DNA from: a virus
Taxonomy: Duplodnaviria > Heunggongvirae > Uroviricota > Caudoviricetes
Strand: one strand, 5' to 3'
Virus record (IMG/VR): IMGVR_UViG_643348547_000010
Span: 1-45,905 of that record
Length of the DNA stretch: 45,905 bases
In this document: positions 1 to 44,460 of the stretch, piece after piece
How positions within the stretch are numbered: position 1 is the stretch's first letter
How the letters are laid out: each line of letters opens with the position of its first letter
The notes under the pieces: model-generated
Database searches by the model: none
What the model saw: the letters and a program-made list of their open reading frames with translations, nothing else
Told to the model about the DNA's origin: nothing
Program-made: the position numbers and the translations under genes

Positions 1-367
1 ATGAAGAAAGTTTTTCTTTGCGCCATCTTAGCCTCCTTAAGCTATCCGGCTATCGCCTCATCATTGCAGGATCAACTCTCTGCTGTCGCAGAAGCGGAAC
101 AGCAAGGTAAAAATGAAGAGCAAAGGCAGCATGACGAATGGGTCGCGGAGCGCAACAGGGAAATCCAGCAAGAGAAGCAACGTCGCGCAAACGCCCAGGC
201 CGCCGCTAACAAAAGAGCGGCAACGGCAGCGGTAAATAAGAAAGCTCGTCAGGATAAACTGGACGCCGAAGCCTCTGCGGATAAAAAACGCGATCAAAGT
301 TATGAAGATGAGCTACGCAGCTTAGAGATTCAGAAACAAAAACTGGCGCTGGCGAAAGAAGAAGCCC
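1..367 (+). pseudogene. Secreted coiled-coil protein gene, 5' portion, interrupted by IS629 (continues at 3948)
   Basis: ORF starts at 1 with signal-peptide-like N-terminus (MKKVFLCAILASLSYPAIA), Lys/Glu/Gln-rich body; reading frame runs into IS629 left end at 368. Confidence 0.6.
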
Positions 368-421
368 TGAACCGCCCCGGGAATCCTGGAGACTAAACTT
401 CCTGAGAAAGAGGTAAACAGG

Positions 422-748
422 ATGACTAAAAATACTCGTTTTTCCCCCGAAGTCCGTCAACGGGCAGTCCGTATGGTTCTGGAAAGTCAGGGCGAATATG
501 ACTCACAATGGGCGACAATTTGTTCCATTGCCCCAAAGATTGGCTGTACACCGGAGACTCTGCGTGTCTGGGTACGCCAGCATGAGCGGGATACCGGAGG
601 CGGTGATGGCGGGCTCACCACCGCTGAACGTCAGCGTCTGAAAGAGCTGGAACGTGAAAATCGTGAACTGCGCCGCAGTAACGATATCCTTCGCCAGGCT
701 TCCGCTTATTTTGCGAAGGCGGAGTTCGACCGCCTCTGGAAAAAGTGA
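422..748 (+). CDS. IS629 OrfA (IS3-family transposase N-terminal HTH protein)
   Basis: 108-aa [25 protein letters not shown]..., near-identical to orfA of the copies at 14287 and 15893-16219. Confidence 0.9.
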
Positions 749-1162
749 TGCCACTGCTGGATAAGCTGCGTAAGCTGTACGGGGTCGGACCGGTATGCAG
801 TGAACTACATATTGCCCCGTCAACGTATTACCACTGTCAGCAACAGCGACATCATCCTGATAAACGCAGTGCCCGTGCGCAGCGCGATGACTGGCTGAAG
901 AAAGAGATACTGCGCGTATACGATGGGAATCATCAGGTATACGGTGTGCGTAAAGTCTGGCGTCAGTTGTTACGGGAAGGAATCAGGGTAGCCAGATGTA
1001 CAGTGGCGCGCCTCATGGCGGTTATGGGACTTGCCGGTGTTCTCCGGGGTAAAAAGGTCCGCACTACCGTCAGCCGGAAAGCCGTTGCCGCAGGCGACCG
1101 CGTAAACCGTCAGTTTGTGGCAGAACGTCCTGACCAGTTGTGGGTGGCTGATTTTACTTACG
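745..1162 (+). pseudogene. IS629 orfB, 5' part, interrupted by group II intron
   Basis: Translation identical to intact OrfB (14610-15500) up to ...QLWVADFTY, then diverges exactly at the intron 5' end. Confidence 0.8.
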
Positions 1163-1818
1163 GTGTGCCCGGAGTTCAGGGCGGGCATGGATGCTTAAAT
1201 GAACCGCGAGTCTGTCTGGAATATTGAACCGGTAACTCACGATGAGAAACCCAACAATCCCACCGGGTGTGACGGTGGAGAACCTGAGCGGCAGTGACCT
1301 GCGGCATGCCCGCAGGGTGATGTAACCCGCTGACAACGGGGATTGAGGCGAGATCACTAAGCCGAGATGATCCTCAAGGTTAAGTACTGAAAGGCTGAAG
1401 AACATGAACCCGTTAATCCGCCTCTGTGGGTTGAAAACGTCACCACGGCCTACGTGATCTGACAGGCCGTGCAGGAGGAACTGGCAGTGATACGTAAGCA
1501 CTGCCGGTCGAAGGTGTTTTGACATGTATGCGAAACACCGGGGCAGCAGCGTCTATCACGCTTGCGTTGCTGACTTCTGCCAACTTGCGGCAAGCAAGGA
1601 TAAAGAGTGCGACGGGCAGCCTCCTCAGTATGCCTGAGTCCAGGCAGGTAAACCGGGGAAGGTCAGCGACGGATGTTAAGGGGGCATGGCTCCGATGACG
1701 CGCTGGCTGGCGGAGCTTCCGTAGTAGTCCGCGATGGGGAAAGCCCATTACATGGCGAAGGGAAGCAGTTTGAATGTGTTTGCGACGTGAATTAACTGAC
1801 CTAACGAGGTGAAGACCT

Positions 1819-3342
1819 TTGATAATCAGCGAAATGCAACGCAAGCTTGCCACATGGGCAGCCACCGATCCGTCCCTACGGATTCAACGGCTGCTGCGTC
1901 TAATAACACAACCAGAATGGCTGGCTGAAGCGGCGCGGATCACGCTTTCATCAAAGGGGGCCCATACCCCCGGCGTTGATGGCGTGAACAAAACAATGCT
2001 ACAGGCCAGACTGGCTGTTGAGCTGCAAATCCTCAGGGATGAATTACTCTCAGGCCACTACCAGCCCTTGCCCGCCAGACGGGTTTACATCCCTAAAAGC
2101 AACGGCAAACTGCGACCACTGGGTATCCCCGCGTTGCGGGATCGTATTGTTCAGCGGGCCATGCTGATGGCGATGGAGCCGATATGGGAGAGTGATTTTC
2201 ATACGCTCTCATATGGCTTCCGGCCTGAGCGCAGTGTCCACCACGCGATCCGCACGGTGAAATTACAGCTCACAGACTGCGGTGAAACCCGGGGACGCTG
2301 GGTGATTGAAGGCGACCTGTCCAGTTACTTCGACACCGTACATCATCGACTGCTGATGAAGGCTGTACGCCGCAGGATCAGTGACGCACGTTTCATGACT
2401 CTGCTGTGGAAAACCATCAAGGCGGGACATATCGATGTCGGTCTCTTTCGGGCGGCCAGTGAAGGTGTGCCACAGGGCGGTGTTATATCGCCGCTATTAT
2501 CGAACATCATGCTGAATGAGTTCGATCAATACCTGCATGAGCGCTACCTGAGCGGGAAAGCCAGAAAAGATCGGTGGTACTGGAATAACAGTATCCAACG
2601 GGGCCGAAGTACGGCGGTCAGAGAAAACTGGCAGTGGAAACCCGCGGTGGCGTACTGCCGCTATGCCGATGATTTTGTCCTCATCGTCAAAGGCACCAAA
2701 GCACAGGCGGAAGCCATCAGGGAGGAGTGTCGGGGTGTGCTCGAAGGCAGTCTGAAACTCAGGCTGAACATGGATAAGACTAAAATCACCCATGTTAATG
2801 ACGGCTTTATCTTTCTGGGGCACAGGATCATTCGCAAACGCAGTCGTTATGGCGAGATGCGAGTGGTCTCAACGATCCCGCAGGAGAAAGCCAGAAACTT
2901 CGCCGCATCGCTGACAGCACTGTTATCAGGCAACTACAGTGAAAGCAAAGTCGATATGGCTGAACAACTCAACCGAAAACTGAAAGGCTGGGCCATGTTC
3001 TATCAGTTCGTTGATTTTAAGGCCAAAGTCTTCAGTTATATCGACCGTGTCGTGTTCTGGAAGCTGGCTCACTGGCTGGCCCGCAAATACCGTACAGGTA
3101 TCGCTTCCCTGATGAGGTGGTGGTGTAAATCACCGAAACCGGGTCAGAGCAAAACGTGGGTTTTATTTGGTAAAACCAATCACGGCAAGCTCAGCGGCGA
3201 AATACTGTACCGGTTGGTGGGGCAAGGCAAGAAGCTGTTCCGCTGGCGGCTACCCGAAGGTAATCCCTATCTGAGGACGGAGACCAGAAACACGTATACA
3301 TCGCGCTTTACAGAAGTGGCAATGGCGTTCGCCAGCATTTAA
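1819..3342 (+). CDS. Group II intron-encoded reverse transcriptase/maturase
   Basis: 507-aa ORF with RT palm motifs (FDTVHHRLL, YADDFVLIV) and C-terminal maturase-like region; no HNH/En motifs visible. Confidence 0.9.
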   Translation: MIISEMQRKLATWAATDPSLRIQRLLRLITQPEWLAEAARITLSSKGAHTPGVDGVNKTMLQARLAVELQILRDELLSGHYQPLPARRVYIPKSNGKLRPLGIPALRDRIVQRAMLMAMEPIWESDFHTLSYGFRPERSVHHAIRTVKLQLTDCGETRGRWVIEGDLSSYFDTVHHRLLMKAVRRRISDARFMTLLWKTIKAGHIDVGLFRAASEGVPQGGVISPLLSNIMLNEFDQYLHERYLSGKARKDRWYWNNSIQRGRSTAVRENWQWKPAVAYCRYADDFVLIVKGTKAQAEAIREECRGVLEGSLKLRLNMDKTKITHVNDGFIFLGHRIIRKRSRYGEMRVVSTIPQEKARNFAASLTALLSGNYSESKVDMAEQLNRKLKGWAMFYQFVDFKAKVFSYIDRVVFWKLAHWLARKYRTGIASLMRWWCKSPKPGQSKTWVLFGKTNHGKLSGEILYRLVGQGKKLFRWRLPEGNPYLRTETRNTYTSRFTEVAMAFASI

Positions 3343-3347
3343 ATGGA

Positions 3348-3381
3348 GAGCCGGATGCGCTGAAAGGTGCACGTCCGGTTC
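3348..3381 (+). ncRNA. Group II intron domain V
   Basis: GAGCCGGATGCGCTGAAAGGTGCACGTCCGGTTC: 34-nt hairpin with AGC triad and GNRA-type loop, located just after the IEP stop and followed by a short domain VI-like hairpin. Confidence 0.8.
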
Positions 3382-3404
3382 GGGGAGGAGAGGCAGGGAA
3401 ATAG

Positions 3405-3905
<501 letters not shown>

Positions 3906-3947
3906 GTTCACAGATAAAACACTCTCCAGGAAACCCGGGGCGGTTCA

Positions 3948-4124
3948 GCCCGCGTTAAGCGAGAAAACGAATTTATCGATCAGGAACTGAAGCACAAAGC
4001 TGCGCAAACCGATGTGGTGCAATCTGAAGCTGACGCAAACAGAAATATGACTGAAGGCGGTCGCGATCTGATGAAAAGCGTGGGCAAAGCAGAAGAGAAC
4101 AAATCGGACAGCTGGTTTAATTAA
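3948..4124 (+). pseudogene. Secreted coiled-coil protein gene, 3' portion (downstream of IS629)
   Basis: Removing the IS and one GCCC copy joins 1-367 to this segment in frame (...KEEARVKRENEFIDQELKHK...SDSWFN stop at 4122-4124). Confidence 0.55.
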
Positions 4125-6422: not shown

Positions 6423-6449
6423 CCCGCAATATTTTGCGGGCTTTTTTTT
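6423..6449. terminator. GC hairpin plus T8 run abutting the tailspike stop codon
   Basis: CCCGCAATATTTTGCGGGCTTTTTTTT; the U-run is on the plus strand, so it is a better plus-strand than minus-strand terminator. Confidence 0.4.
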
Positions 6450-9400
6450 AACGTTCTTCCAGAGACTGAACCCGCTCTTTTATCTTATCCATTTCTCTGC
6501 GCTGCCATGCTGCCTCGATATAGAATAAGAGATCAGGTCTGACCCCCCATCTAGATCCTGCTGGCGTTATTTCAACGCGCTCAATGATGTCTTCTATTAC
6601 CATCACTGGATTATCATCCTCATCAACAATGATGCTCCCGTCATTATCAGTCAGCGGCATTTCCCTTTGGCCAGTAATGACGTCATCATATACTGCGGGA
6701 TAATCGTCATAGCAAAGAAAGGCATAGCGGCATGTTGTGCTTTCTTCTTCCATGAGTCCGTGAGAAATAAGAACATCACGAAGTTGCTGCGCGATTACAC
6801 CATGATGTATCCTCGCCCCTTCTTCCCCCTTTATAGCGACAGCGTTCAGCCATTTATAAGCGATATACCTGACGTCACCCCAGGCATCCAGCAATGCTTC
6901 GTCAGGAGAGACCGGCTCTGTCTTTAATGTTCCGTCACTGGTAACCACAGGATTGGAGCCAAGATAAACTGTCGAGAACCTGTTTCCCGGACCACCAAGA
7001 GCATTTACATTATCAAGATAAGGTTTAACATCTCCGTTCTCAAAAAGATGTTCGAGTGCGTTATATACCGCGCGACGTGGAGTACTGCTTCCGGAACCAT
7101 GCAACGTTATCATTGCACCATCTGCTGAAGACGTTGTTTCACCGCCGCTAACGATTAATCTCTGAGCGGTAACATCATCAGACGGTACTTTCTTCGCAAT
7201 AATGGCGTAATTACCCTCAAGTTTGACTTCCGCGCGAACTTGTCCTGATGTACCTGCATGGACAGTCAGTGACTGGACGGCAACATCATCTGTGAAATCA
7301 ACGGGTACAGGAACCGTCCTCACGCCTGACGTCGACATAAAAGTAGGAAGCGTTCTGTTAGGAGTGGCTCCGTAGACAAAATCCCTTGAAACAAATTCTT
7401 CCTGTTTAATTTTCACCCTGAAACAATACAAATCAGCCGGGTGACCATCGTGAACATAAGGATATTTTCTGTTGTTATCCCCTATGCTCCATGGGTTTAG
7501 AAAGTCTTCCCCACCGAAAATGTAGTACAGCCAGTTGTCTTTGATACAAACTGAACCAACACCAACCGCAGAGTTAACTATTCCGCCCTGATAAATCTGA
7601 TCAGTAACATTAACCCACTCTACATTATCCAGACTCCACTCATTGACGTTAACTCTGGTCATAAATGTTCTTGGATAATTTCCTGCATAACGGTTATCAG
7701 GTTCTCCTCCTTCCCACTCACCAAATGCGCGCTCACTGCCAAAAATAATCAGCTCATCGCCAACTTTGGCAAAAGGAAGGTTTGAGTGATGAACATTATT
7801 TGGGAAGCGAAGAGAATTCCATGATGTACCTAAATCAGAGCTTCTGTGCAATGAACTACCGGGTTGAGTACTTAATGTCCCCCTGGTCGTCAGATACAGA
7901 ATGCCATCATAATATTTTACACATGGCTCAGATGCATTCGCCTCATATTCTACAGGTATGCGTCTGCGAACAAAGCTACCAGGAGAACCGAAAGCATCAG
8001 AGAAATAGAGTATCCCAAGCTCGCGTGGACCAATATCACCATTATGGTAGCCAACAGCAAAACTGTTATCGCTAATCGTCGCAAAACTGTGAATCTCAGT
8101 AACAGGAGTGCTTCCGTCAACAAAAGAAGGAATAGTTCCAAGACTGGTTTTTCTCCATGGTGACGAGTGAAATGATGTGCCAAAACTCCAGTATCTACCC
8201 TCGTTATTCTGATCCACATCCTGGGTATTTTGCGTCGTAACTGTAAAGGTATTTTTATCAATAACAGTAGTCACCGTCATATTCCCGGTAACACCTGTAA
8301 CACCAGAGTTTGAGAAGTTGACAAAATCACCAGCAAATAATCCGTGATCAGTAATGCGAATATAAGCGACTTGCTGATTTGCTGCTTTCGTTATACCACC
8401 ATAAACGCGAAGGCTGCGACTCATTGGGCGATCCCACAACTCTGCAACCTGCAGTTTATTTCCTCTCACGGTCCGCGTCTCAATTACAGCAAAAAGGCGA
8501 TTTCTGACAACCCCCATACTCATGCAGTGATAGTTAACTGTGGGATAGTTTTCATGTAAATCTGTAAGCCATTCCGGCGTTGTCCAGGTCTTCCCGTCAT
8601 CTCCTGAGCGAACCCATGCAACATGGAGGTTATTTACACCATGGCGGTCTCCAGCCATAAAAGGCGCATAGATGACATTGTCATATACAAACGTTTTATC
8701 CTGCGTCCAGGCGTTGTACCACGGTGTATCTGTAATTTTAAATAACTCTCCCTGGATAAAATCTTCAGAAGCATAAAAAAGAGGCTGGCCCGGTATTCTC
8801 TCAAATAAAAAACGAGCATTTTTAAATCGACTGACATCCGGAAGAGTTGATACTTTAAAAGTAAGCCCTAATCCGTCAATTTTATAACCTGGAGATGAGG
8901 CTTCAAGGCACGCGCTTATTGCAGTGGAATCGTCATTTATACCATCACCAACAGCTCCAAAATCTTTGGGGCTAATAGCATCACGCATTTTATCCTGGAA
9001 CGTTCGGTACACAGCCCCAGAACCATACTGAATAAACCAACCAAAACCACCAACAACTCCGGCGATTGCAGCATCGACATAATTACGCATTGAGCGATTA
9101 TTTACAGCGTCCTGCTCAAATGATGGATCTGCAAGGTTAGAAATTTTGTTTTGCTTTGCATCGTAATATTTTGCAAGCAAAGATGGTTTCATCAATGCAC
9201 GTCTGAACCACCCAAAACATTGCTGGATCAGCATCGTCAGGTAGTCAAAGGCATCTTCATGCACTTCGGGGAAAAATTTTCCCTGATTGCGAAGGTCTGT
9301 GTCCTGCACTACATCAAGCACACGATCTATCGTAATTCGCCATCCAGTAGCAAGCGGAGACGGAAGAACCACAGAACCGCCACTATAAGTGCCCGCCACA

Positions 9401-9567
9401 GTTACCGTATAACCGGTATCCAGGACCAATTCTGTTACGTTCCCGTTCAGGTCAGACACCTGAACAACCAGGTCTGATTTTCTGAAAATTCGAAAAGTAT
9501 ACGGAAACGATGTCGTAACGCCGTTACCGGTGTATTCGTTGTGGTCAACTTCGGTTGAGACCGTCAT
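6448..9567 (-). CDS. Tail fibre/tailspike: T7 gp17-like N-terminal adaptor, glycosidase-like body with Asp-box motifs, C-terminal intramolecular chaperone (peptidase S74-like)
   Basis: N-terminus MTVSTEVDHNEYTGNGVTTSFPYTF... and NLADPSFEQDAVNNRS resemble tail-fibre N-domains; DFGAVGDGINDDSTAI beta-helix-type motif; Asp-boxes SGDDGKTW and SSDLGTSW; C-terminal ...SDGTLKTEP...HHGVIAQQL... chaperone-like. Confidence 0.8.
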   Translation of the reverse strand: MTVSTEVDHNEYTGNGVTTSFPYTFRIFRKSDLVVQVSDLNGNVTELVLDTGYTVTVAGTYSGGSVVLPSPLATGWRITIDRVLDVVQDTDLRNQGKFFPEVHEDAFDYLTMLIQQCFGWFRRALMKPSLLAKYYDAKQNKISNLADPSFEQDAVNNRSMRNYVDAAIAGVVGGFGWFIQYGSGAVYRTFQDKMRDAISPKDFGAVGDGINDDSTAISACLEASSPGYKIDGLGLTFKVSTLPDVSRFKNARFLFERIPGQPLFYASEDFIQGELFKITDTPWYNAWTQDKTFVYDNVIYAPFMAGDRHGVNNLHVAWVRSGDDGKTWTTPEWLTDLHENYPTVNYHCMSMGVVRNRLFAVIETRTVRGNKLQVAELWDRPMSRSLRVYGGITKAANQQVAYIRITDHGLFAGDFVNFSNSGVTGVTGNMTVTTVIDKNTFTVTTQNTQDVDQNNEGRYWSFGTSFHSSPWRKTSLGTIPSFVDGSTPVTEIHSFATISDNSFAVGYHNGDIGPRELGILYFSDAFGSPGSFVRRRIPVEYEANASEPCVKYYDGILYLTTRGTLSTQPGSSLHRSSDLGTSWNSLRFPNNVHHSNLPFAKVGDELIIFGSERAFGEWEGGEPDNRYAGNYPRTFMTRVNVNEWSLDNVEWVNVTDQIYQGGIVNSAVGVGSVCIKDNWLYYIFGGEDFLNPWSIGDNNRKYPYVHDGHPADLYCFRVKIKQEEFVSRDFVYGATPNRTLPTFMSTSGVRTVPVPVDFTDDVAVQSLTVHAGTSGQVRAEVKLEGNYAIIAKKVPSDDVTAQRLIVSGGETTSSADGAMITLHGSGSSTPRRAVYNALEHLFENGDVKPYLDNVNALGGPGNRFSTVYLGSNPVVTSDGTLKTEPVSPDEALLDAWGDVRYIAYKWLNAVAIKGEEGARIHHGVIAQQLRDVLISHGLMEEESTTCRYAFLCYDDYPAVYDDVITGQREMPLTDNDGSIIVDEDDNPVMVIEDIIERVEITPAGSRWGVRPDLLFYIEAAWQRREMDKIKERVQSLEER

Positions 9568-12389: not shown

Positions 12390-12578
12390 TTATTTTATTA
12401 TTCTTCCGAACAATACAATTCCGAATACTACAAAGCCGAACCATGCCGCTGCACGCAACAGAGATTCCAATTGAAACCCATTTTTATCAAAATGTATGAA
12501 TAGCATAAAAACGCTGCACATATTAGTACAATAAAAGTTATTTGAACCATCATATCTCCTTTTATTGCGGAGTGACAT
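12390..12578 (-). CDS. Small hypothetical protein with C-terminal hydrophobic segment
   Basis: 62-aa ORF only; overlaps the end of the upstream gene. Confidence 0.3.
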   Translation of the reverse strand: MSLRNKRRYDGSNNFYCTNMCSVFMLFIHFDKNGFQLESLLRAAAWFGFVVFGIVLFGRIIK

Positions 12579-14232
12579 CCTGTGGTCGCCACCAGTATGT
12601 CTGGTTAAACTCTTTCTTCGAACGTTGCTCCATTTTACGCAAATAGCCTGGTGAAAAATACTCCTGCATCTGGTTAAAGATCATGTGATCGAGAGCCGCC
12701 TTCAAGTACCAGAGATTCGCACCAGGCATCAAACCTTTCCCCAGCTTCACCAGATCACCACCAGTCTGCTCACTCTTCCCTTCCACAGCATTTAACGGTA
12801 TGCCCTGAGCAATCTTCACTACGTCATCAACCAGACCAGCTACCGGGCCAAGCATCGACGCCAGCGCGCCGCTTCCGTACCTAGTGTGATCTGACAATAA
12901 AAAGTCACCGTAAAGGCCAAGACCACCACCTTTCAGTAGAGCACCAAGCCAGAATTTTGCGGCATCTTCTCCTGTCATCTCTCGAGGATTACGACCAGAC
13001 GCAAGGTCGTTAAGTTGCTGCGACAAAGCGCCAAGAATGGTCGTACTGGCAATAAACGTCGCAATATATGCCGCACGCCCACCAGCAGACGGCATACCCA
13101 TAGCGCGTGACCAGTGACGCATAACAACCGAGATAGGGAACGATTTAAACAGGAAAACACTTCTCGTTAATTCACCTTTCCATGTTCCACGCTGAATACC
13201 AGAACCGGTTATCAGTTGCTCACGTGCTCCCGGTGTAATAACAGCCATATCAACTTCTTCAGTTACGGCACCGAGCAGTTTACGCATTGCCTCAAATTTC
13301 ACGCGTTCAGGCTCACCAAGATGTTTAACTGCTGAATCAGGGATACGCATAATGCTTTCCGGTGTCAGCATCGTATTATTACCGTTCCCCCAGTCCTCCT
13401 GTTTCGCCAGCTTCCATACGCTCCAGTCTGTGTCAGTAATCCCTTTGCTTTTCAGGATACGAAAATCAGAGTCATCGAGGCTACGAAGGTCTGGTGTCCG
13501 TGACACTACTTCTCCCAGGCTTCCCATCATGGTTACGCCATAGGCGCGCTTGTGCGCATCTGACCATGCTGTAAGCCCACTGGCACGCATTACCGCCGTT
13601 GCCGCCCAACGAGACACTGACGGCCCCATATTATCCATCGCCCAGCGGTTAACGCTGCCAAGTAGAGATTCCATCGCCAGACCAGCGCGGCGCGCCCGCG
13701 CAAGTTCTGTACGGTTCGTTGGGTCCATAGCTTCAAGCTGGTTGCGGAATAACTGGTTCATTGGAAGGTTGGTAACCTTCGCAGACAGATACATGGTTCC
13801 AAGATCAGAGAACGATGACAGCAACGCGGATCCGAGTCTGCTGGCAACCAGCCAGTTGCGGATATTGTCAGACCATCGCGCGATGTGCGGATTCGCTACA
13901 GGCTGTGTCTTTCCGGAAATAAAGTTGTACAGATTCTCTGTGTTGTTCGCCAGCCGCTCGACTTTACCGGTTTTACTCGGGTTAGCTGTTGCCGTTTCTG
14001 CCTTCACCTGATCAAGAAGAGAGCGGAAAACATGATCGGGGTTTGGGCCATATGTTTCCACCAGTGCAATATCTTTACTGATACCTTCCAGGTGACCGAC
14101 CATGATTTCCCATAGAGAGCGATCGCCATAAAGTTGCTGATATTGCAGATAGGAATCTGCATCTTTGAAATGTATCTGTCGTGATGCATTACCACGGTTA
14201 GCACGTGCGCCGGAAATTCGCATTCCGGTATC
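12562..14232 (-). pseudogene. Internal virion (ejection/core) protein gene, C-terminal portion, separated from its 5' part by IS629 copies
   Basis: 557 codons of phage sequence downstream of IS629 left end; the track ORF (12562-14325) starts inside the IS. Confidence 0.7.
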
Positions 14233-14286
14233 TGAACCGCCCCGGGAATCCTGGAGACTAAACTTCCTGAGAAAGAGGTAAACAGG

Positions 14287-14613
14287 ATGACTAAAAATAC
14301 TCGTTTTTCCCCCGAAGTCCGTCAACGGGCAGTCCGTATGGTTCTGGAAAGTCAGAGCGAATATGACTCACAATGGGCGACAATTTGTTCCATTGCTCCA
14401 AAGATTGGCTGTACGCCGGAGACTCTGCGTGTCTGGGTTCGCCAGCATGAGCGGGATACCGGGGGCGGTGATGGAGGGCTCACCACCGCTGAACGTCAGC
14501 GTCTGAAAGAGCTGGAACGTGAAAATCGTGAACTGCGCCGCAGTAACGATATCCTTCGCCAGGCTTCCGCTTATTTTGCGAAGGCGGAGTTCGACCGCCT
14601 CTGGAAAAAATGA
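14287..14613 (+). CDS. IS629 OrfA
   Basis: 108-aa ORF, same protein as 422-748 apart from one residue. Confidence 0.9.
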
Positions 14614-15500
14614 TGCCACTGCTGGATAAGCTGCGTGAGCAGTACGGGGTCGGACCGCTATGCAGCGAACTGCATATTGCCCCGTCAACGTATTACCACT
14701 GTCAGCAACAGCGACATCATCCGGATAAACGCAGTGCCCGTGCGCAGCGCGATGACTGGCTGAAGAAAGAGATACAGCGCGTATACGATGAAAATCACAA
14801 GGTATACGGTGTGCGTAAAGTCTGGCGTCAGTTGTTACGGGAAGGTATCAGAGTGGCCAGATGCACTGTGGCACGTCTCATGGCGGTTATGGGACTTGCC
14901 GGTGTTCTCCGGGGTAAAAAGGTCCGTACGACCATCAGCCGGAAAGCCGTTGCCGCAGGCGACCGCGTAAACCGTCAGTTCGTGGCAGAACGACCTGACC
15001 AGCTGTGGGTGGCTGATTTTACTTACGTCAGCACATGGCGGGGCTTCGTCTATGTGGCGTTCATCATTGATGTGTTTGCCGGATACATCGTGGGGTGGCG
15101 GGTCTCATCGTCCATGGAAACGACATTCGTGCTGGATGCACTGGAGCAGGCGTTATGGGCCCGTCGACCGTCCGGCACGGTCCATCACAGTGATAAAGGT
15201 TCTCAGTATGTATCGCTGGCCTACACACAGCGGCTTAAGGAAGCCGGATTACTGGCATCAACAGGAAGTACAGGCGACTCGTATGACAACGCGATGGCGG
15301 AGAGCATCAATGGTCTTTACAAAGCGGAGGTAATACACCGTAAGAGCTGGAAAAACCGTGCAGAAGTGGAACTGGCCACACTCACGTGGGTGGACTGGTA
15401 TAACAATCGACGATTGCTGGAAAGGCTGGGCCATACTCCTCCGGCAGAAGCAGAAAAAGCTTATTATGCTTCCATCGGAAACGATGATCTGGCAGCCTGA
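14610..15500 (+). CDS. IS629 OrfB (DDE transposase catalytic part)
   Basis: 296-aa ORF overlapping orfA in the -1 frame as in IS3-family elements. Confidence 0.9.
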
Positions 15501-15542
15501 GTTCACAGATAAAACACTCTCCAGGAAACCCGGGGCGGTTCA

Positions 15543-15896
15543 GTCGCCTGCGGCAACGGCTTTCCGGCTGATGGTCGTACGGACCTTTTTACCCCGGAGA
15601 ACACCGGCAAGTCCCATAACCGCCATGAGACGTGCCACAGTGCATCTGGCCACTCTGATACCTTCCCGTAACAACTGACGCCAGACTTTACGCACACCGT
15701 ATACCTTGTGATTTTCATCGTATACGCGCTGTATCTCTTTCTTCAGCCAGTCATCGCGCTGCGCACGGGCACTGCGTTTATCCGGATGATGTCGCTGTTG
15801 CTGACAGTGGTAATACGTTGACGGGGCAATATGCAGTTCGCTGCATAGCGGTCCGACCCCGTACTGCTCACGCAGCTTATCCAGCAGTGGCATCAT
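15543..15896 (-). pseudogene. IS629 orfB, truncated
   Basis: Encodes first 117 aa of OrfB then runs into the neighbouring IS end. Confidence 0.8.
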
Positions 15897-16219
15897 TTTT
15901 TCCAGAGGCGGTCGAACTCCGCCTTCGCAAAATAAGCGGAAGCCTGGCGAAGGATATCGTTACTGCGGCGCAGTTCACGATTTTCACGTTCCAGCTCTTT
16001 CAGACGCTGACGTTCAGCGGTGGTGAGCCCTCCATCACCGCCCCCGGTATCCCGCTCATGCTGGCGAACCCAGACACGCAGAGTCTCCGGCGTACAGCCA
16101 GTCTTTGGAGCAATGGAACAAATTGTCGCCCATTGTGAGTCATATTCGCTCTGACTTTCCAGAACCATACGGACTGCCCGTTGACGGACTTCGGGGGAAA
16201 AACGAGTATTTTTAGTCAT
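15893..16219 (-). CDS. IS629 OrfA (in truncated copy)
   Basis: 108-aa ORF matching the other orfA copies. Confidence 0.85.
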
Positions 16220-16273
16220 CCTGTTTACCTCTTTCTCAGGAAGTTTAGTCTCCAGGATTCCCGGGGCGGTTCA

Positions 16274-17076
16274 GTAAGCTTATTCAGCCCACCAGTAGCG
16301 ATCGTGTTATAAGCCTCTCCAAGAAATGAAGACAACTCGGCATCGTTCATCAGTTGTCCATCGGCTCGGATATAATATTTGCGATCCAGCTTACCTATAA
16401 CATCGCTAACCCACTTATCCTTTGATACTGCCCCAACCTTTTCCATAGAATGATGTTGAGGGATCCCCCAGTTTTCGAGATAGCCAATGTCCCCACCAGC
16501 ATCATTAAACCGGCGGCGCAGCAGCTCTGTAACTTCTCTCCACGCCTTAGCACCGTTTCTTGCTTTAGCATTGCCAGTATTTTGCCCCCGCATTTCATAT
16601 ACCAGGTCACGTACGCCCGCTTCATCTTCAAACAGACCAAAAAAGCGAGGATCAACTGCTTCGAATGCCTCCTGCAATTGACTCAATGCATAATCACGGG
16701 TGGCTTTTGTTCTGGATTCAACAGAGAGGAAATTAGATTTACCGTCTGCATTAAAAGCTATAGTACGGTTAAGAGCGCCAAGTTTCCCATCAGCCCCTTG
16801 ATAGCTATTGATAAATTTATCCAATCTCTGACGTGCGGCTATAGTGAGAGCCACACGACGTTTCTTTAATGTCGCTTCTCGCTGTAATTCTTCAGATGCC
16901 AATTGTGCTGCACGATACAACCGTTCTGATTCGGAAAGTTGTCGCCACGACATCGGGTCATCACGAGCAATGGAGCGCATATTTCGATAAATGCGGTCTT
17001 CAATGTTCTGTATTTCTCGCGCCGTTAACGTGCGCTGCGCCGCCTGCTGGACCGCTTGTATACATTCCTGTCTCAT
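16274..17076 (-). pseudogene. Internal virion (ejection/core) protein gene, N-terminal portion, truncated by IS629
   Basis: Track ORF 16225-17076 reads from phage sequence into the IS end (last 16 residues IS-derived). Confidence 0.7.
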
Positions 17077-31014: not shown

Positions 31015-31091
31015 GTGGCATTAGCTCACTTGGACAGAGCAACCGCCTTCTAAGCGGTTGGTCGCAGGTTCGAATCCTGCATGCCACGCCA
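31015..31091 (+). tRNA. tRNA-Arg (anticodon UCU), phage-encoded
   Basis: Cloverleaf by hand: acceptor GTGGCAT/ATGCCAC, D-arm GCTC/GAGC, anticodon stem ACCGC/GCGGT with loop CTTCTAA, T-arm GCAGG-TTCGAAT-CCTGC, discriminator G, CCA; sequence differs from host argU. Confidence 0.85.
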
Positions 31092-34346: not shown

Positions 34347-34701
34347 TCTGATTTTCCTGCATCATGAGAAATACAATCATGGCGGCGCGGAGAACATTTT
34401 CATGCTCATGCTCCCAAATAGGGTTGGCAGAAGCACCGTGCAAACCGCTTTCGTTCCAGTCCCAGAGAATGTTAACTCCGTTATCAGCAATAATCGGCCA
34501 TGCATCTGCTGGGTTTGCGCATGGGTTAAAGGATCCGCGCTCAACTTCTACTTCAACTGCGTCTCCGTTTACAATGTCTCCCACAAATGAGATAAACACC
34601 ATCGCGCCATTCTCACCTTCTTTGTAATCCGGTGATCCGTTATGAATGGCTTCGAATACCGCCACGTTAATTTCAAAATCACTTAACTGTGAATAGTCCA
34701 T
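34339..34701 (-). CDS. Hypothetical acidic protein
   Basis: Start at MDYSQLSDFEIN... overlapping upstream stop (ATGA). Confidence 0.5.
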   Translation of the reverse strand: MDYSQLSDFEINVAVFEAIHNGSPDYKEGENGAMVFISFVGDIVNGDAVEVEVERGSFNPCANPADAWPIIADNGVNILWDWNESGLHGASANPIWEHEHENVLRAAMIVFLMMQENQNG

Positions 34702-35414
34702 CACTTCACCTCCTGCGGCGGTTCTGGTAGCGGCATCCAGTGTGATGGTATCCACGACGCACCAGGTATTACCCACCCATCATTAGCGTCAGGATGCCCC
34801 GGGATGTAAGTCGCCCATTTCATTCGCCAGTCACCTTTCCTGTCAAACTCCCTGGCAACAAGAACGGCTGTTTTGGTATCCGGCATTCGCTCACTACAGC
34901 TTATCCAACCATCCGGAGTTACCGGAGAGCTGGTTGACGCTTCCGGGATTTTCCGAAAATTATTGGTTGACGAATCTTTATTTTCCCGAAAGTTTCCGGA
35001 CTGAAGCATGGCTTCGCGGCAATCGTTCCAGCCTGTAGCGTATGCAGCCGCTTTGCTGCTGCCTTCAACTGGCGCATCCTGCCAATACATTTCATCCGGC
35101 ACTACCGGCGCTGGCAAGGCAGCGTGATAGTAGAGTGGCATAGTTTTGTACAGTGGTTCGCCAGGACTTCCGTCAACCTGATTCCATTCTTCAACCCAGG
35201 CATCAACAACCGCTTTGCTGGTTGATACATGTTCTTCTGAATCTACATTTTGTCCTGATATACAGAACATAACTGCCTCTGCTTCCAGCGATGCCAGAGC
35301 AATTCGTGCCAGTTCTTCCGCTTCTTCTGCTGGCAGTACAACGTTGCTACCAGGTCCGTATGTTTCGCGCCACTGCTTGATTGTCAGCAGTCGCTCTTTG
35401 GTTATAGTGGTCAT
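34701..35414 (-). CDS. DUF551-type phage protein
   Basis: C-terminus ...VLVAREFDRKGDWRMKWATY...WMPLPEPPQ matches the DUF551 pattern common in enterobacterial prophages. Confidence 0.6.
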   Translation of the reverse strand: MTTITKERLLTIKQWRETYGPGSNVVLPAEEAEELARIALASLEAEAVMFCISGQNVDSEEHVSTSKAVVDAWVEEWNQVDGSPGEPLYKTMPLYYHAALPAPVVPDEMYWQDAPVEGSSKAAAYATGWNDCREAMLQSGNFRENKDSSTNNFRKIPEASTSSPVTPDGWISCSERMPDTKTAVLVAREFDRKGDWRMKWATYIPGHPDANDGWVIPGASWIPSHWMPLPEPPQEVK

Positions 35415-35424
35415 TTGTTAATCC

Positions 35425-36180
35425 TTAAACTGCTAGTTGCAATTGCATTTCAAAGCGGTCGCGTTGTTCACAATACGCAAGAGAACCAGGGCTATTGTGT
35501 GCCTCAATCCGTTCTACCATTAATGCTGCTCGTGTCTCTTTACTTGCAGGTGCATAAGCCCCAGACCAGGCTTTATCAATACCGATGTTTCGAGCGACGT
35601 TCGTACTATCTGCGCTGGCTAAGGGTAATTTTGTGAATATCAGCGGATTTAACATGCGCAACCCATGTAGTTTCGTAACCGGCTGACCATACTCATCAAC
35701 AATGTGACGAATCAGGTCTTTCATTCTGGCTACCGCAAGAGTTGGGCGCTTTACGTCATAGTCGCCACAACTACCGATAGCCACTCGCGGAAACTCATTG
35801 CACAAATGAATAAATCGCTCGTCACTTTCATTCATGTGCCACACTGGAACGCCAGCTAGTTTTCCGTGAGGCCACTCATTCAGAAGCGCATCATTTTCTT
35901 CCTCTCCGCCATCAATAACATCAGGGATAATGGCAAAATCGAATCCTGGGTGATTCTTCCAGCGAGCAACAAACTCGTAGTAATCGCTCCAGTCGATTTT
36001 GTTTTTGCCAGCTGCTTTCCAGGCGGTGAATGCACCGTTGTCCAGCGCGAACGACTGACAGTATTCAGCCGCGAGATTGATCTGGCCTGAATGCGCAAAA
36101 CTGATAAACGCATGTCGCCCTTTCCATGCTCTCATGGCGCACGTATCAGGAGTAATAGGCCCACCGTGATAGTGAATCAT
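35425..36180 (-). CDS. Hypothetical enzyme-like protein (possible TGT/DpdA-like fold)
   Basis: 251-aa ORF; motifs LDNGAF, VAIGSCGD and DSTNVARN loosely resemble the three conserved blocks of tRNA-guanine transglycosylases; low confidence in function. Confidence 0.5.
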   Translation of the reverse strand: MIHYHGGPITPDTCAMRAWKGRHAFISFAHSGQINLAAEYCQSFALDNGAFTAWKAAGKNKIDWSDYYEFVARWKNHPGFDFAIIPDVIDGGEEENDALLNEWPHGKLAGVPVWHMNESDERFIHLCNEFPRVAIGSCGDYDVKRPTLAVARMKDLIRHIVDEYGQPVTKLHGLRMLNPLIFTKLPLASADSTNVARNIGIDKAWSGAYAPASKETRAALMVERIEAHNSPGSLAYCEQRDRFEMQLQLAV

Positions 36181-36181
36181 C

Positions 36182-36748
36182 TCACTCTCCTTTGATGCGA
36201 ATGCCAGCGACGCGTAATGCGTGTTCTAGGTCAATCAGGTAAAGCCAACTGCCATTTTCTTTAGGTATCATGACATGTCGCTCATCTGCATTTATCGGGT
36301 GTCCATATCGAAGGTCGTAGCGAGTCGGTAATTGAACTTCCCGCGCTTCCAGTTCAGCAATACGCTTCTCTGCGGCCTCTGCCCTGCATTGTTCCCGTTG
36401 GAACATTTTGTGGGTGCGGTCGAGCGCCTCAAGTCTGGCTGCTGATGTTTTCTCTTCTGCTTCAAGCTCAACGCGCAGCTTCCCAACCGTAAGCGCAATA
36501 TCCTCGTTCTCCTGGTCGCGGCGTTTGATGTATTGCTGGTTTCTTTCCCGTTCATCCAGTAGTGCCAGCACGGTTTCTGGTCCGGTCAGAAATTTGAAGG
36601 CATTGAGCGCATCAATATCCACACCGTAATCTTTAAGTTCCTGTTCACTTAACAAATCATCATCAGCTGGCAACATTAACAGGCGTTCCATTGCTGGAAT
36701 TGCACGTTCCGCCACCTCACGCAGTGACTGGTAATTAATTTCGCTCAC
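36182..36748 (-). CDS. Hypothetical coiled-coil protein
   Basis: 188-aa ORF, early region. Confidence 0.5.
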   Translation of the reverse strand: MSEINYQSLREVAERAIPAMERLLMLPADDDLLSEQELKDYGVDIDALNAFKFLTGPETVLALLDERERNQQYIKRRDQENEDIALTVGKLRVELEAEEKTSAARLEALDRTHKMFQREQCRAEAAEKRIAELEAREVQLPTRYDLRYGHPINADERHVMIPKENGSWLYLIDLEHALRVAGIRIKGE

Positions 36749-37843: not shown

Positions 37844-38626
37844 TTACTTGATAAATCCTGCCGCCTTTCCCCGCCTGTATTCCTCCATCAGCCACTGCGC
37901 CGGTGTTATTCCCCCCAGGGTGGCGGCGTTAGGCATGCACCCGAAACTTCGCCCTGGTGGATGGTAAACGTCTCTCCCTGTATCCGGAGGTGTACTCATG
38001 GGTTCTGGCTTTGCCTGTATGCTGATCACCGGATCGGGTATCTGCTGTCCGGAAGCCACCTTTTTCGCCCAATCATCGAGCAGCCTGCACGCGTGTTTCT
38101 CAACCTCAATCTCGCTAAGCTGGCGCTGATACATTGCACGGCGGGTATCACATACGACCCAGTACATAACCGGATGTCGCCACGGGAATCTTTCGGGACC
38201 ACCAGGATATAAACTTTTTTCCTTGCTGTACCGGTGAAACTCCGCCATCACATCGTCAATGGTGACGCCAAGAACCATCTTGCTGTCTTTACACCACTTG
38301 ATAAATTGCCCTGGCGACGGCCAGAACGGAGACTCACTGGCGCGGGCGTGGCGCATACCAGCGTTAACCTGTTCCATTGTTGTGATCCCATTCTCCAGAA
38401 ACGCAAGCATCCATTGTTTTCGAAATTCGTTTAGCTTTCCTTGCTCGCTGATAGCAGCGATGCTGCCTGGAAATGCAGCCTGTAACTGGACAAACATTTC
38501 GTTGAAAATTCTTGCAACCTGCTCCTTCTTTGCCCTTTCATCGTCAGCAGAAGCAACCGCCGTCGAGTGGTCATGCCCACCACGAAAGCGATCGTACTCA
38601 TTAAGAAGTTCTGGAGTTGATTTCAT
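37844..38626 (-). CDS. Replication protein P-like (helicase loader)
   Basis: Blocks ENGITTMEQVNAGMR and PFWPSPGQF closely match lambda P; start taken at MKSTPELL. Confidence 0.8.
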   Translation of the reverse strand: MKSTPELLNEYDRFRGGHDHSTAVASADDERAKKEQVARIFNEMFVQLQAAFPGSIAAISEQGKLNEFRKQWMLAFLENGITTMEQVNAGMRHARASESPFWPSPGQFIKWCKDSKMVLGVTIDDVMAEFHRYSKEKSLYPGGPERFPWRHPVMYWVVCDTRRAMYQRQLSEIEVEKHACRLLDDWAKKVASGQQIPDPVISIQAKPEPMSTPPDTGRDVYHPPGRSFGCMPNAATLGGITPAQWLMEEYRRGKAAGFIK

Positions 38627-39434
38627 CCCACACCTCATCTATCCAGTCAGTGTTATGCCAGTCAAGGCTCTTTCTGACTTCACCTGATTTCTGTCTACAG
38701 AACTGGATGCGCCTTGCCAGCTTCTGCTCCCACTGTGCCTGATGGTATGCCTTACCCTCAGCCATCCAGTAAATTCTGAACTCTGCAAGTTCCTGTGCCG
38801 TTGGCAGACTGTCCAGGTAGATTCCCTGCAATGAGCTTTTCCGAAGAAAGTCATCTGATGGCTGCCATTGTTCATGCATGACAAATTTGCCTAATTGCCC
38901 TGGCCCACCAGGAGGAACAAAGTTATTCATCACGGCGTTGTTTGCGCCGGGGTCATGAGGAACAGAATCCCCGGTTTTTGTCCTGCTCTCCCTCTCTTGG
39001 TTAAATGACTGGTTATATGACTGGTTCTGGATCCCGTTTTTGGGATCATTCAACATCCCGTTTTTGGGATCATTCAACATCCCGTTTTTGGGTATATTCC
39101 CGTTTTCGGTAACATTACCGTTTTCGGGTTCATTGCCCCCCTCCCGGTTGCCTTTAATGTTCCCGTTTTTGGTTATATTAAGAGAGAAAACCCGCACTCT
39201 TTTTGTCGCTCCCTTTCTCTCTCCGGTATCTGAAATAAGCCCCATTTTCATGAGCGATATAAGCCCGGCCTGCACGGTTTTTTTATTCAGGCAAGTGTCT
39301 TTAACGAGGCGTTCTATGCTGGGGTAGCAGAGGTTATATTCATCGGCTCTGTCAGCCATCGAGAGCAGTATGAGCTTTAATGATGAGCTACCTGGATCTG
39401 TCTCCCAGGCCCAATCTGTTGCATGTCTGCTCAT
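38601..39434 (-). CDS. Replication initiator O-like protein with internal ori iterons
   Basis: N-terminal winged-helix-like region (LKLILLSMADRADEYNLCYPSIERLVKD...), Asn/Gly-rich repeat region encoded by DNA iterons. Confidence 0.7.
   Translation of the reverse strand: MSRHATDWAWETDPGSSSLKLILLSMADRADEYNLCYPSIERLVKDTCLNKKTVQAGLISLMKMGLISDTGERKGATKRVRVFSLNITKNGNIKGNREGGNEPENGNVTENGNIPKNGMLNDPKNGMLNDPKNGIQNQSYNQSFNQERESRTKTGDSVPHDPGANNAVMNNFVPPGGPGQLGKFVMHEQWQPSDDFLRKSSLQGIYLDSLPTAQELAEFRIYWMAEGKAYHQAQWEQKLARRIQFCRQKSGEVRKSLDWHNTDWIDEVWDEINSRTS
39031..39176. repeat. Origin iterons inside the O-like gene
   Basis: ATCCCGTTTTTGGGATCATTCAAC repeated in tandem twice, followed by four degenerate CCCGTTTT(T/C)GG units. 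Confidence 0.6.
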
Positions 39435-43517: not shown

Positions 43518-43817
43518 GTGAGAAAGTTAAGCCGACTTGAAAAATATAACATGAACAAGGTTTCAGTGCGCAGTCCGTCAAAGATTGTCGCCGTTACTCC
43601 TGCGGCGATAGAGATCGAAAAACGCGCGATTGAAAGAGAGAAAAAAGGGCAATTCCGCATTGCCGCTCACCTTTGGCTTCAGTGTATGGATGTTGCTTCT
43701 GGTGATGTTGAACGTGCAAGGATCGCGGTTCGCAGGGACCAATGTATCACAAAAGGTAACGGCCTTCGCCGTGGCGACTATAACGGCATAGGATGTTGTG
43801 GGGTGGTTTATGACTAA
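43518..43817 (+). CDS. Small regulator-like protein (PerC/ANR-like pattern)
   Basis: 99-aa ORF with GTG start and GAGGG RBS; motif FRIAAHLWLQCMDVAS...ERARIAVRRDQC. Confidence 0.4.
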   Translation: MRKLSRLEKYNMNKVSVRSPSKIVAVTPAAIEIEKRAIEREKKGQFRIAAHLWLQCMDVASGDVERARIAVRRDQCITKGNGLRRGDYNGIGCCGVVYD

Positions 43818-44460
43818 GAAATACACACTAATCTATGCAGATCCACCCTGGGTATACCGGGACAAAGCCGCAGATGGTAATCGCGGTGCCGGTTTTAAAT
43901 ATCCGGTTATGAGTGTGCTGGATATCTGCCGCCTTCCTGTGTGGGATTTGACCGCTGAAAACTGTCTGTTGGCCATGTGGTGGGTGCCAACACAACCACT
44001 CGAAGCACTAAAAGTTGTTGAAGCCTGGGGATTTCGTCTGATGACGATGAAGGGCTTCACGTGGATAAAATGTGGTAGTCGACAACCAGATAAACTGGTT
44101 ATGGGTATGGGACACATGACTCGCGCCAATAGTGAAGATTGCCTGTTTGCGGTAAAGGGAAAACTACCTACGCGCATTAATGCAGGGATCGTTCAGTCAT
44201 TTACCGCACCGCGGCTTGAGCATTCAAGAAAGCCAGATATCGTTCGTGAAAAACTTGTGCAATTATTAGGCGATGTTTCTCGCATTGAACTGTTCGCCCG
44301 CCAGACGTCTCATGGCTTCGATGTTTGGGGTAATCAGTGCGAAGACCCGGCAGTGCAACTACACCCTGGATACGCGTTGGATATTGGCGGATTAACAAAT
44401 GCATTCAGCAATGCTCCGCTGTCACCAACAGACATCCAGGGGCGGGAGCGTGCTGCATGA
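43810..44460 (+). CDS. DNA N6-adenine methyltransferase, MT-A70 family
   Basis: Catalytic DPPW motif (LIYADPPWVY); start at ATG 43810 overlapping upstream stop. Confidence 0.8.
   Translation: MTKKYTLIYADPPWVYRDKAADGNRGAGFKYPVMSVLDICRLPVWDLTAENCLLAMWWVPTQPLEALKVVEAWGFRLMTMKGFTWIKCGSRQPDKLVMGMGHMTRANSEDCLFAVKGKLPTRINAGIVQSFTAPRLEHSRKPDIVREKLVQLLGDVSRIELFARQTSHGFDVWGNQCEDPAVQLHPGYALDIGGLTNAFSNAPLSPTDIQGRERAA

Follow-up and report, generated by a model that had tools for sequence, protein, structure and literature searches.

The 45,905-nt Caudoviricetes record IMGVR_UViG_643348547_000010, analysed here over its whole length and referred to as the window, is a prophage that carries on its minus strand, from position 36180 down to 35425, a gene for a compact singleton member of the phage DpdA family. 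The 251-amino acid product is a (β/α)8 barrel of the tRNA-guanine transglycosylase (TGT) superfamily with a conserved set of active-site residues, and judged by analogy with its characterized relatives it is probably a DNA guanine transglycosylase that would use preQ0 of the host and be made early in lytic growth. The modification of DNA with 7-deazaguanines is an established counter-defence of phages, targeted in turn by host systems such as GrwAB and the Dag glycosylases. Earlier work centred on virulent phages carrying the whole preQ0 pathway. The compact singleton form is common and present in the well-studied temperate phages BTP1 and SfI, and general databases list it as 'hypothetical'. 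The DpdA assignment can already be found in published work and in the RefSeq annotation of phages, and for this window it is a correct annotation and not a discovery.

Family assignment, fold and predicted active site

The gene is a single open reading frame (ORF) with an ATG start. The initial annotation, made from the nucleotide sequence, had given the length of the product correctly and had left out the strand. It had also picked out three ordered blocks, which lie at residues 45-51 (ALDNGAF), 132-140 (RVAIGSCGD) and 190-200 (ADSTNVARNIG), as loosely recalling TGT motifs; the motifs it cited (TDSGGF, AVGGLAVGE and FDCVMPTRNARNG) are all found in TGT of E. coli K-12. The likeness goes beyond chance. 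A PHROGs search gave one match, phrog_887 'queuine tRNA-ribosyltransferase' (E=6e-103, residues 1-248), and DpdA of Enterobacteria phage 9g falls in the same group (E=2e-98). From an exhaustive HMMER search, which collected 814 representatives at E<=1e-3, a 50-sequence family alignment was built. Its comparison by HHalign with an alignment of the 9g group, the kind of profile-profile check that the initial annotation had proposed, returned a probability of 99.4% (E=5e-21, 164 columns), and in BLASTP the window protein and 9g DpdA were 22% identical over 152 residues (E=4e-7) with all motifs in register. Three weak motifs had pointed to the right family.

The tblastn search of phage genomes revealed homologues at 93% identity in BTP1 and SPN3UB, at 68% in SfI and Vibrio phage Athena1, at 36% in Salmonella phage 7-11 and at 25% (E=1e-4) in the validated DpdA of Iggy. 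The 7-11 homologue (YP_004782407) is full-length and 36% identical over 220 residues (BLASTP E=9e-33). An identical protein is public as CAR18812.1, an 'uncharacterized protein' of E. coli O7:K1 strain IAI39, and was found on 70 contigs. Clustered at 90% identity, the whole family yields more than 7800 clusters.

Pfam, NCBIfam and PDB sequence searches with the single window protein gave no match. PF01702, the Pfam TGT family, did not match it, none of the 50 family members had any Pfam match, and E. coli TGT, used as the positive control, scored 2.8e-168 against Pfam TGT. The same family gave no match to 9g DpdA, the validated Iggy DpdA or the annotated DpdA homologues of Sonali and 7-11, and a missing Pfam match is therefore normal for phage DpdAs. 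When the family profile and a joint DpdA profile were run against the PDB with hmmsearch, only spurious matches to GCN4, RNase H and a venom protease were obtained, at E>0.1; hhalign likewise detected nothing between the family or 9g-group profile and one single sequence of E. coli TGT.

The AlphaFold2 model computed on the family alignment (pLDDT 95.7, pTM 0.92) has eight strand/helix units, in agreement with a (β/α)8 barrel of the TGT superfamily, the fold that the initial annotation had suggested checking by structure prediction. Foldseek against the PDB returned generic TIM barrels only, with non-significant E-values and TGT ranked 37th. In the structural comparison unrelated barrels reach 13.7, so that the structural signal is supportive and not decisive alone. 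Against predicted viral structures (BFVD) there were 30 matches at E<=1e-3, and all the named ones are phage 'queuine tRNA-ribosyltransferase'.

In a joint alignment of the window protein with proteins of 9g, a 9g relative, Iggy, Sonali, 7-11 and DMCA (the last a Caulobacter phage), the columns D47, A50, D87, I89, P112, H115, H172, P186, S189, D191 and S192 are invariant. Across 197 full-length family sequences, 35-99% identical to the window protein, the motif residues are nearly always retained (D47 in 194, D87 in 193, H115 in 194, H172 in 195 and D191 in 191), and in the model the conserved residues lie at or just past the C-terminal ends of strands 3, 4, 5, 6, 7 and 8. The predicted catalytic and base-binding residues are Asp47, Asp87, His115, Gly136, His172 and Asp191. 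Alignment and analogy suggest that D47, D87 and D191 provide the general acid/base, base recognition and the nucleophile, and by their order and spacing the motif residues would correspond to D95, D130, H181 and D256 of bacterial DpdA, in which the D95A and D256A substitutions each abolish activity. H172 aligns with His196 of 9g DpdA, a conserved histidine mentioned in the literature, and D191 and H172 together resemble the D248/H226 pair of Cap10. The window protein is minimal: neither a CxCxxC zinc motif (its cysteines are only at 14, 41, 127, 138 and 237) nor the tRNA-binding insertions of TGT nor an equivalent of Ins8 of bacterial DpdA was found in it, and the joint alignment revealed in it no C-terminal region of the 9g type, its C-terminus lying 60 residues past Asp191.

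A link to deazapurine metabolism, independent and modest, comes from DMCA, a temperate phage. Its homologue, 37% identical to the window protein, stands directly after a gene for a 98-amino acid QueD/PTPS-like protein (PF01242, E=1.1e-4), with no other que genes annotated near it (locus L103, 6705-7726). The two-gene arrangement might make or alter a deazapurine; a parallel is offered by the DpdL decarboxylase of phiST. Two composite proteins were rejected as clues to function. P0235, a metagenomic protein of 421 amino acids in which a truncated D12-class Dam methyltransferase (residues 7-193) precedes a DpdA-like domain (193-351), is a lone sequence from one 36.6-kb Logan contig in which both domains are cut short, and could have arisen from a faulty assembly or a frameshift; P0260, a Phage_GPD overlap protein, looks chimeric.

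Position of the gene in the prophage

In its close relatives the prophage is integrated beside guaA, and its structural genes are of the BPP-1-like podovirus type. The early operon of dpdA on the minus strand is headed by genes for an O-like/DnaT-like replication initiator and a P-like helicase loader (37844..39434; phrog_1032, phrog_109 and RefSeq annotation), which are followed by a DUF1064 gene, two Ea22-like genes and dpdA, and then by a DUF551 gene, a small ORF, a regulator and the small and large terminase subunits. The gene directly upstream of dpdA encodes an Ead/Ea22-like coiled-coil protein (36182..36748, minus strand; phrog_250/368, 'ead/Ea22-like' in the RefSeq annotation of the closest genome), and directly downstream, after a gap of 11 nt, lies the DUF551-containing gene (34701..35414, minus strand; phrog_60/924 and DUF551 annotation). 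The TGA stop of the upstream ORF (36182-36184) is one base from the dpdA start codon, and dpdA is therefore tightly packed in the operon. A Shine-Dalgarno motif AAGGAG (36187..36192, minus strand) can be read from the sequence six bases 5' of the dpdA ATG, within the end of the upstream gene, a position that suggests translational coupling to that gene.

The initial annotation had placed the gene in an early operon near a recombination module bearing a DNA methyltransferase. The first part holds, the operon being the divergent, replication-side one; the second is only loosely true, as the MT-A70 family methyltransferase gene (43798..44460, plus strand; phrog_359, RefSeq 'MT-A70 family methyltransferase') belongs to a different operon about 7.6 kb away past the repressor region. 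It shares this divergent plus-strand early operon with RecE-like nuclease and RecT/Bet genes, does not adjoin dpdA and is of interest as context only.

The immediate neighbours were compared in 79 viral contigs whose dpdA copies have 90% identity or more. Directly upstream stands the Ea22-like cluster in 68 of 78 related loci, and directly downstream the DUF551 cluster in 63 of 79, with gaps of 1-2 nt and 11 nt within the trio, and the outer flanks of the trio vary between otherwise different prophages. At 68-70% identity the neighbours of dpdA change (DUF1317, DksA-like). The Ea22-like and DUF551 proteins were rejected as functional partners of DpdA because they are conserved beside it only among relatives of at least 90% identity, and we read the trio as a mobile cassette kept together by linkage, not as a functional complex.

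No gene for a partner or for base synthesis accompanies dpdA. Searched by tblastn with queries from three phages, the window gave nothing below E=0.05 for FolE, QueD, QueE and QueC, and no DpdB/ParB-like or DGQHR homologue was found anywhere in it. Co-encoded genes for preQ0/G+ synthesis are typical of high-level modifiers and not obligatory; with none present the window protein is placed in the 'only DpdA' group, and as a minimal barrel in a phage devoid of synthesis genes it must rely on a host-supplied base. In a sister prophage of E. coli CRKP-1 a gene with a DGQHR domain (DndB/DpdB-like, ParB fold; L021 23313-24380) stands directly upstream of the MT-A70 methyltransferase gene. That prophage has no dpdA, and the matching site in the window, at about 43817, is devoid of the DGQHR gene. 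This DpdB-like gene, unlinked to dpdA and absent from the window, was rejected as a partner of dpdA; together with the adenine methyltransferase it may form a separate modification or defence module.

Other features of the prophage were recorded. The tailspike of 1039 amino acids (6448-9567, minus strand) has all endosialidase domains (End_beta_propel E=1.7e-232) and an S74 chaperone domain. It follows that the phage has the K1 polysialic acid capsule as its specific target, which fits the record of the exact DpdA protein in a K1 strain, IAI39. An element of the IS3 family of insertion sequences (367-3948) is split by an insertion of about 2.26 kb (1163-3423) that carries a group II intron reverse transcriptase/maturase (ORF 1819-3342, plus strand; RVT_1 E=1.5e-34, GIIM E=1.3e-10). 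Both halves of the split element are 96-98% identical to an intact copy at 14232-15543 (orfA 14287-14613, orfB 14610-15500), which adjoins an inverted partial copy at 15543-16274. This second element (14232-16274) lies within the virion-gene region beside a 587-amino acid ORF (12562-14325); it may have interrupted a structural gene, with a defective prophage as the result. A tRNA-Arg gene (anticodon TCT; 31015-31091, plus strand), annotated in sister prophages too, is located between the portal side and the terminase genes.

Proposed mechanism and alternative explanations

What is established here is that the protein belongs to the family, has the fold and the conserved active-site residues and is a singleton, and where its gene stands in the operon; we infer the activity and substrate of the enzyme, the level and sequence specificity of the modification, and its benefit. 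In the proposed mechanism dpdA would be co-transcribed with the replication genes in the lytic phase. If the enzyme works as TGT and DpdA do, the nucleophile would be Asp191, with His172 beside it: its attack on C1' of a target deoxyguanosine would release guanine. Asp47 would serve as the general acid/base, and recognition of the base would fall to Asp87 and His115. A free 7-deazaguanine would then resolve the covalent intermediate, so that dPreQ0 or a derivative, for instance dADG, would remain in the phage DNA. The free base would most likely be preQ0 from the FolE/QueD/QueE/QueC pathway of the host because the phage has no synthesis genes of its own. The likely benefit would be that phage DNA entering a cell is shielded from restriction or from other defences that target DNA.

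Some doubt attaches to this proposal. Phage 7-11, the nearest relative with analysed DNA, has trace modification only (dADG at 50 per 10^6 nt, about 0.02% of G). The window protein has no obvious DNA-binding extension, and a literature search found no test of the singleton DpdA cluster of enterobacterial temperate phages.

The gene might instead be a mobile accessory whose product modifies DNA little or not at all in this host, kept by linkage in a mosaic early region. Such a role would agree with the variable slot, with a sister prophage at the same guaA site that lacks dpdA, with the movement of dpdA as part of a three-gene cassette with variable outer flanks, and with the occurrence of the gene (at least 95% nucleotide identity) in only 203 of 5426 complete E. 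coli genomes, where the copies listed are called 'hypothetical protein'. Orion, a Mycobacterium phage with another singleton DpdA, showed no modification, but its host has no queuosine pathway, whereas E. coli makes preQ0 through that pathway. The catalytic-type residues are, moreover, kept in at least 97% of the 197 sequences, down to 35% identity; this conservation and the very large size of the family point to purifying selection on the active site. On balance we consider such a near-silent passenger unlikely.

A rather unlikely explanation is that the TGT-fold enzyme is active but has moved from phage DNA to another substrate, either host tRNA or the protein-linked or free 7-deazaguanine of host immunity (type IV CBASS with Cap9/Cap10, Qat), so that the protein would serve as a counter-defence or host-takeover factor. 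This explanation is suggested by the resemblance to Cap10; the partners of a Cap10-type operon (the QueC-like Cap9, a CD-NTase and an effector) were not found in the window. Still less probable, in our estimation, is that the minimal singleton DpdA is no bulk anti-restriction modifier and either places a few sequence-specific deazaguanine marks, regulatory or for self-recognition, or has a non-DNA target like that of Cap10, its closest structural neighbour, intercepting for instance type IV CBASS or Qat; if the latter were true, it would be a new class of counter-defence enzyme. An unrelated TIM-barrel enzyme, aldolase-like or PdxJ-like, with coincidental TGT-like motifs is effectively refuted by the HHalign match to validated DpdAs, the PHROG common to both, the five motif residues invariant in both groups, the phage TGT-like identity of all named BFVD matches and the equal lack of a Pfam TGT match in validated phage DpdAs.

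A DNA guanine transglycosylase fed by the host is thus the reading we prefer. If it is active, many prophages would parasitise the queuosine pathway of their hosts and mark their own DNA on induction, and restriction, CRISPR and sequencing-based methylome studies would be affected; if it is inactive on DNA, an unexplored use of the TGT fold would be indicated.

Comparison with known TGT-fold systems

Bacterial TGT (PF01702) differs from the window protein in its zinc site and tRNA-binding insertions, and the E. coli enzyme is 124 residues longer. Cap10 of type IV CBASS (PDB 9NTN) shares 9% identity, binds the deazaguanylated N-terminus of the CD-NTase and works with Cap9 in a defence operon. 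Bacterial DpdA of the Dpd restriction-modification system (S. Montevideo, PDB 7UI4) has 413 amino acids, with insertions Ins1-3 and an Ins8 of 128 residues pinned by a CXCX2CX22H zinc site, features that are all absent from the window protein. The bacterial enzyme requires the ParB-like ATPase DpdB, which is not present in the window, and its gene has dpdC-K as neighbours, unlike the window gene with its phage replication, Ea22-like and DUF551 genes.

The DpdA1 enzymes of Queuovirinae-type phages (9g, CAjan, Bas24, Iggy) share with the window protein PHROG 887, the 99.4% HHalign match and the invariant Asp/Asp/His/His/Asp set. Their DNA transglycosylase activity is proven and independent of DpdB: 9g DpdA expressed alone in E. 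coli inserts dPreQ0 into plasmid DNA from host preQ0, and deletion of dpdA from CAjan abolishes all dPreQ0. Pairwise identity to the window protein is about 16-22%. The DpdA1 proteins have about 310-317 amino acids, with an N-terminal extension and a C-terminal region of about 90 residues that are both missing in the window protein, and their genes lie within FolE/QueD/QueE/QueC clusters, in phages that modify 16-32% of G, whereas the window phage has no such cluster.

The DpdA of 7-11 is, like the window protein, compact (234 amino acids) and a singleton, but it comes from a virulent 90-kb phage and has a predicted isoelectric point of 9.0, against 6.1 for the window protein; the modification in 7-11 is dADG rather than dPreQ0, and published work does not explain where the amide comes from. 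Closest of all are the singletons of temperate phages. In Supplementary Data 1 of Hutinet et al. 2019 (Nat Commun 10:5442) BTP1 (SIU02687), SPN3UB (YP_007011024) and SfI (YP_009147480) are listed as phages encoding only DpdA, as are HK106, Athena1 and 7-11 (YP_004782407). In the similarity network of that study the singleton DpdAs from phages of gammaproteobacteria cluster by themselves; its authors suggest that such phages could use host preQ0 and point out that the complete queuosine pathway is encoded by the hosts. The proteins of BTP1, SPN3UB, SfI, HK106 and Athena1 are orthologues of the window protein, of equal length and from temperate phages of preQ0-making hosts; the known singletons reside in P22-like or lambda-like phages and the window copy in a BPP-1-like, K1-specific, podovirus-type prophage at guaA, and nothing substantive differs between them.
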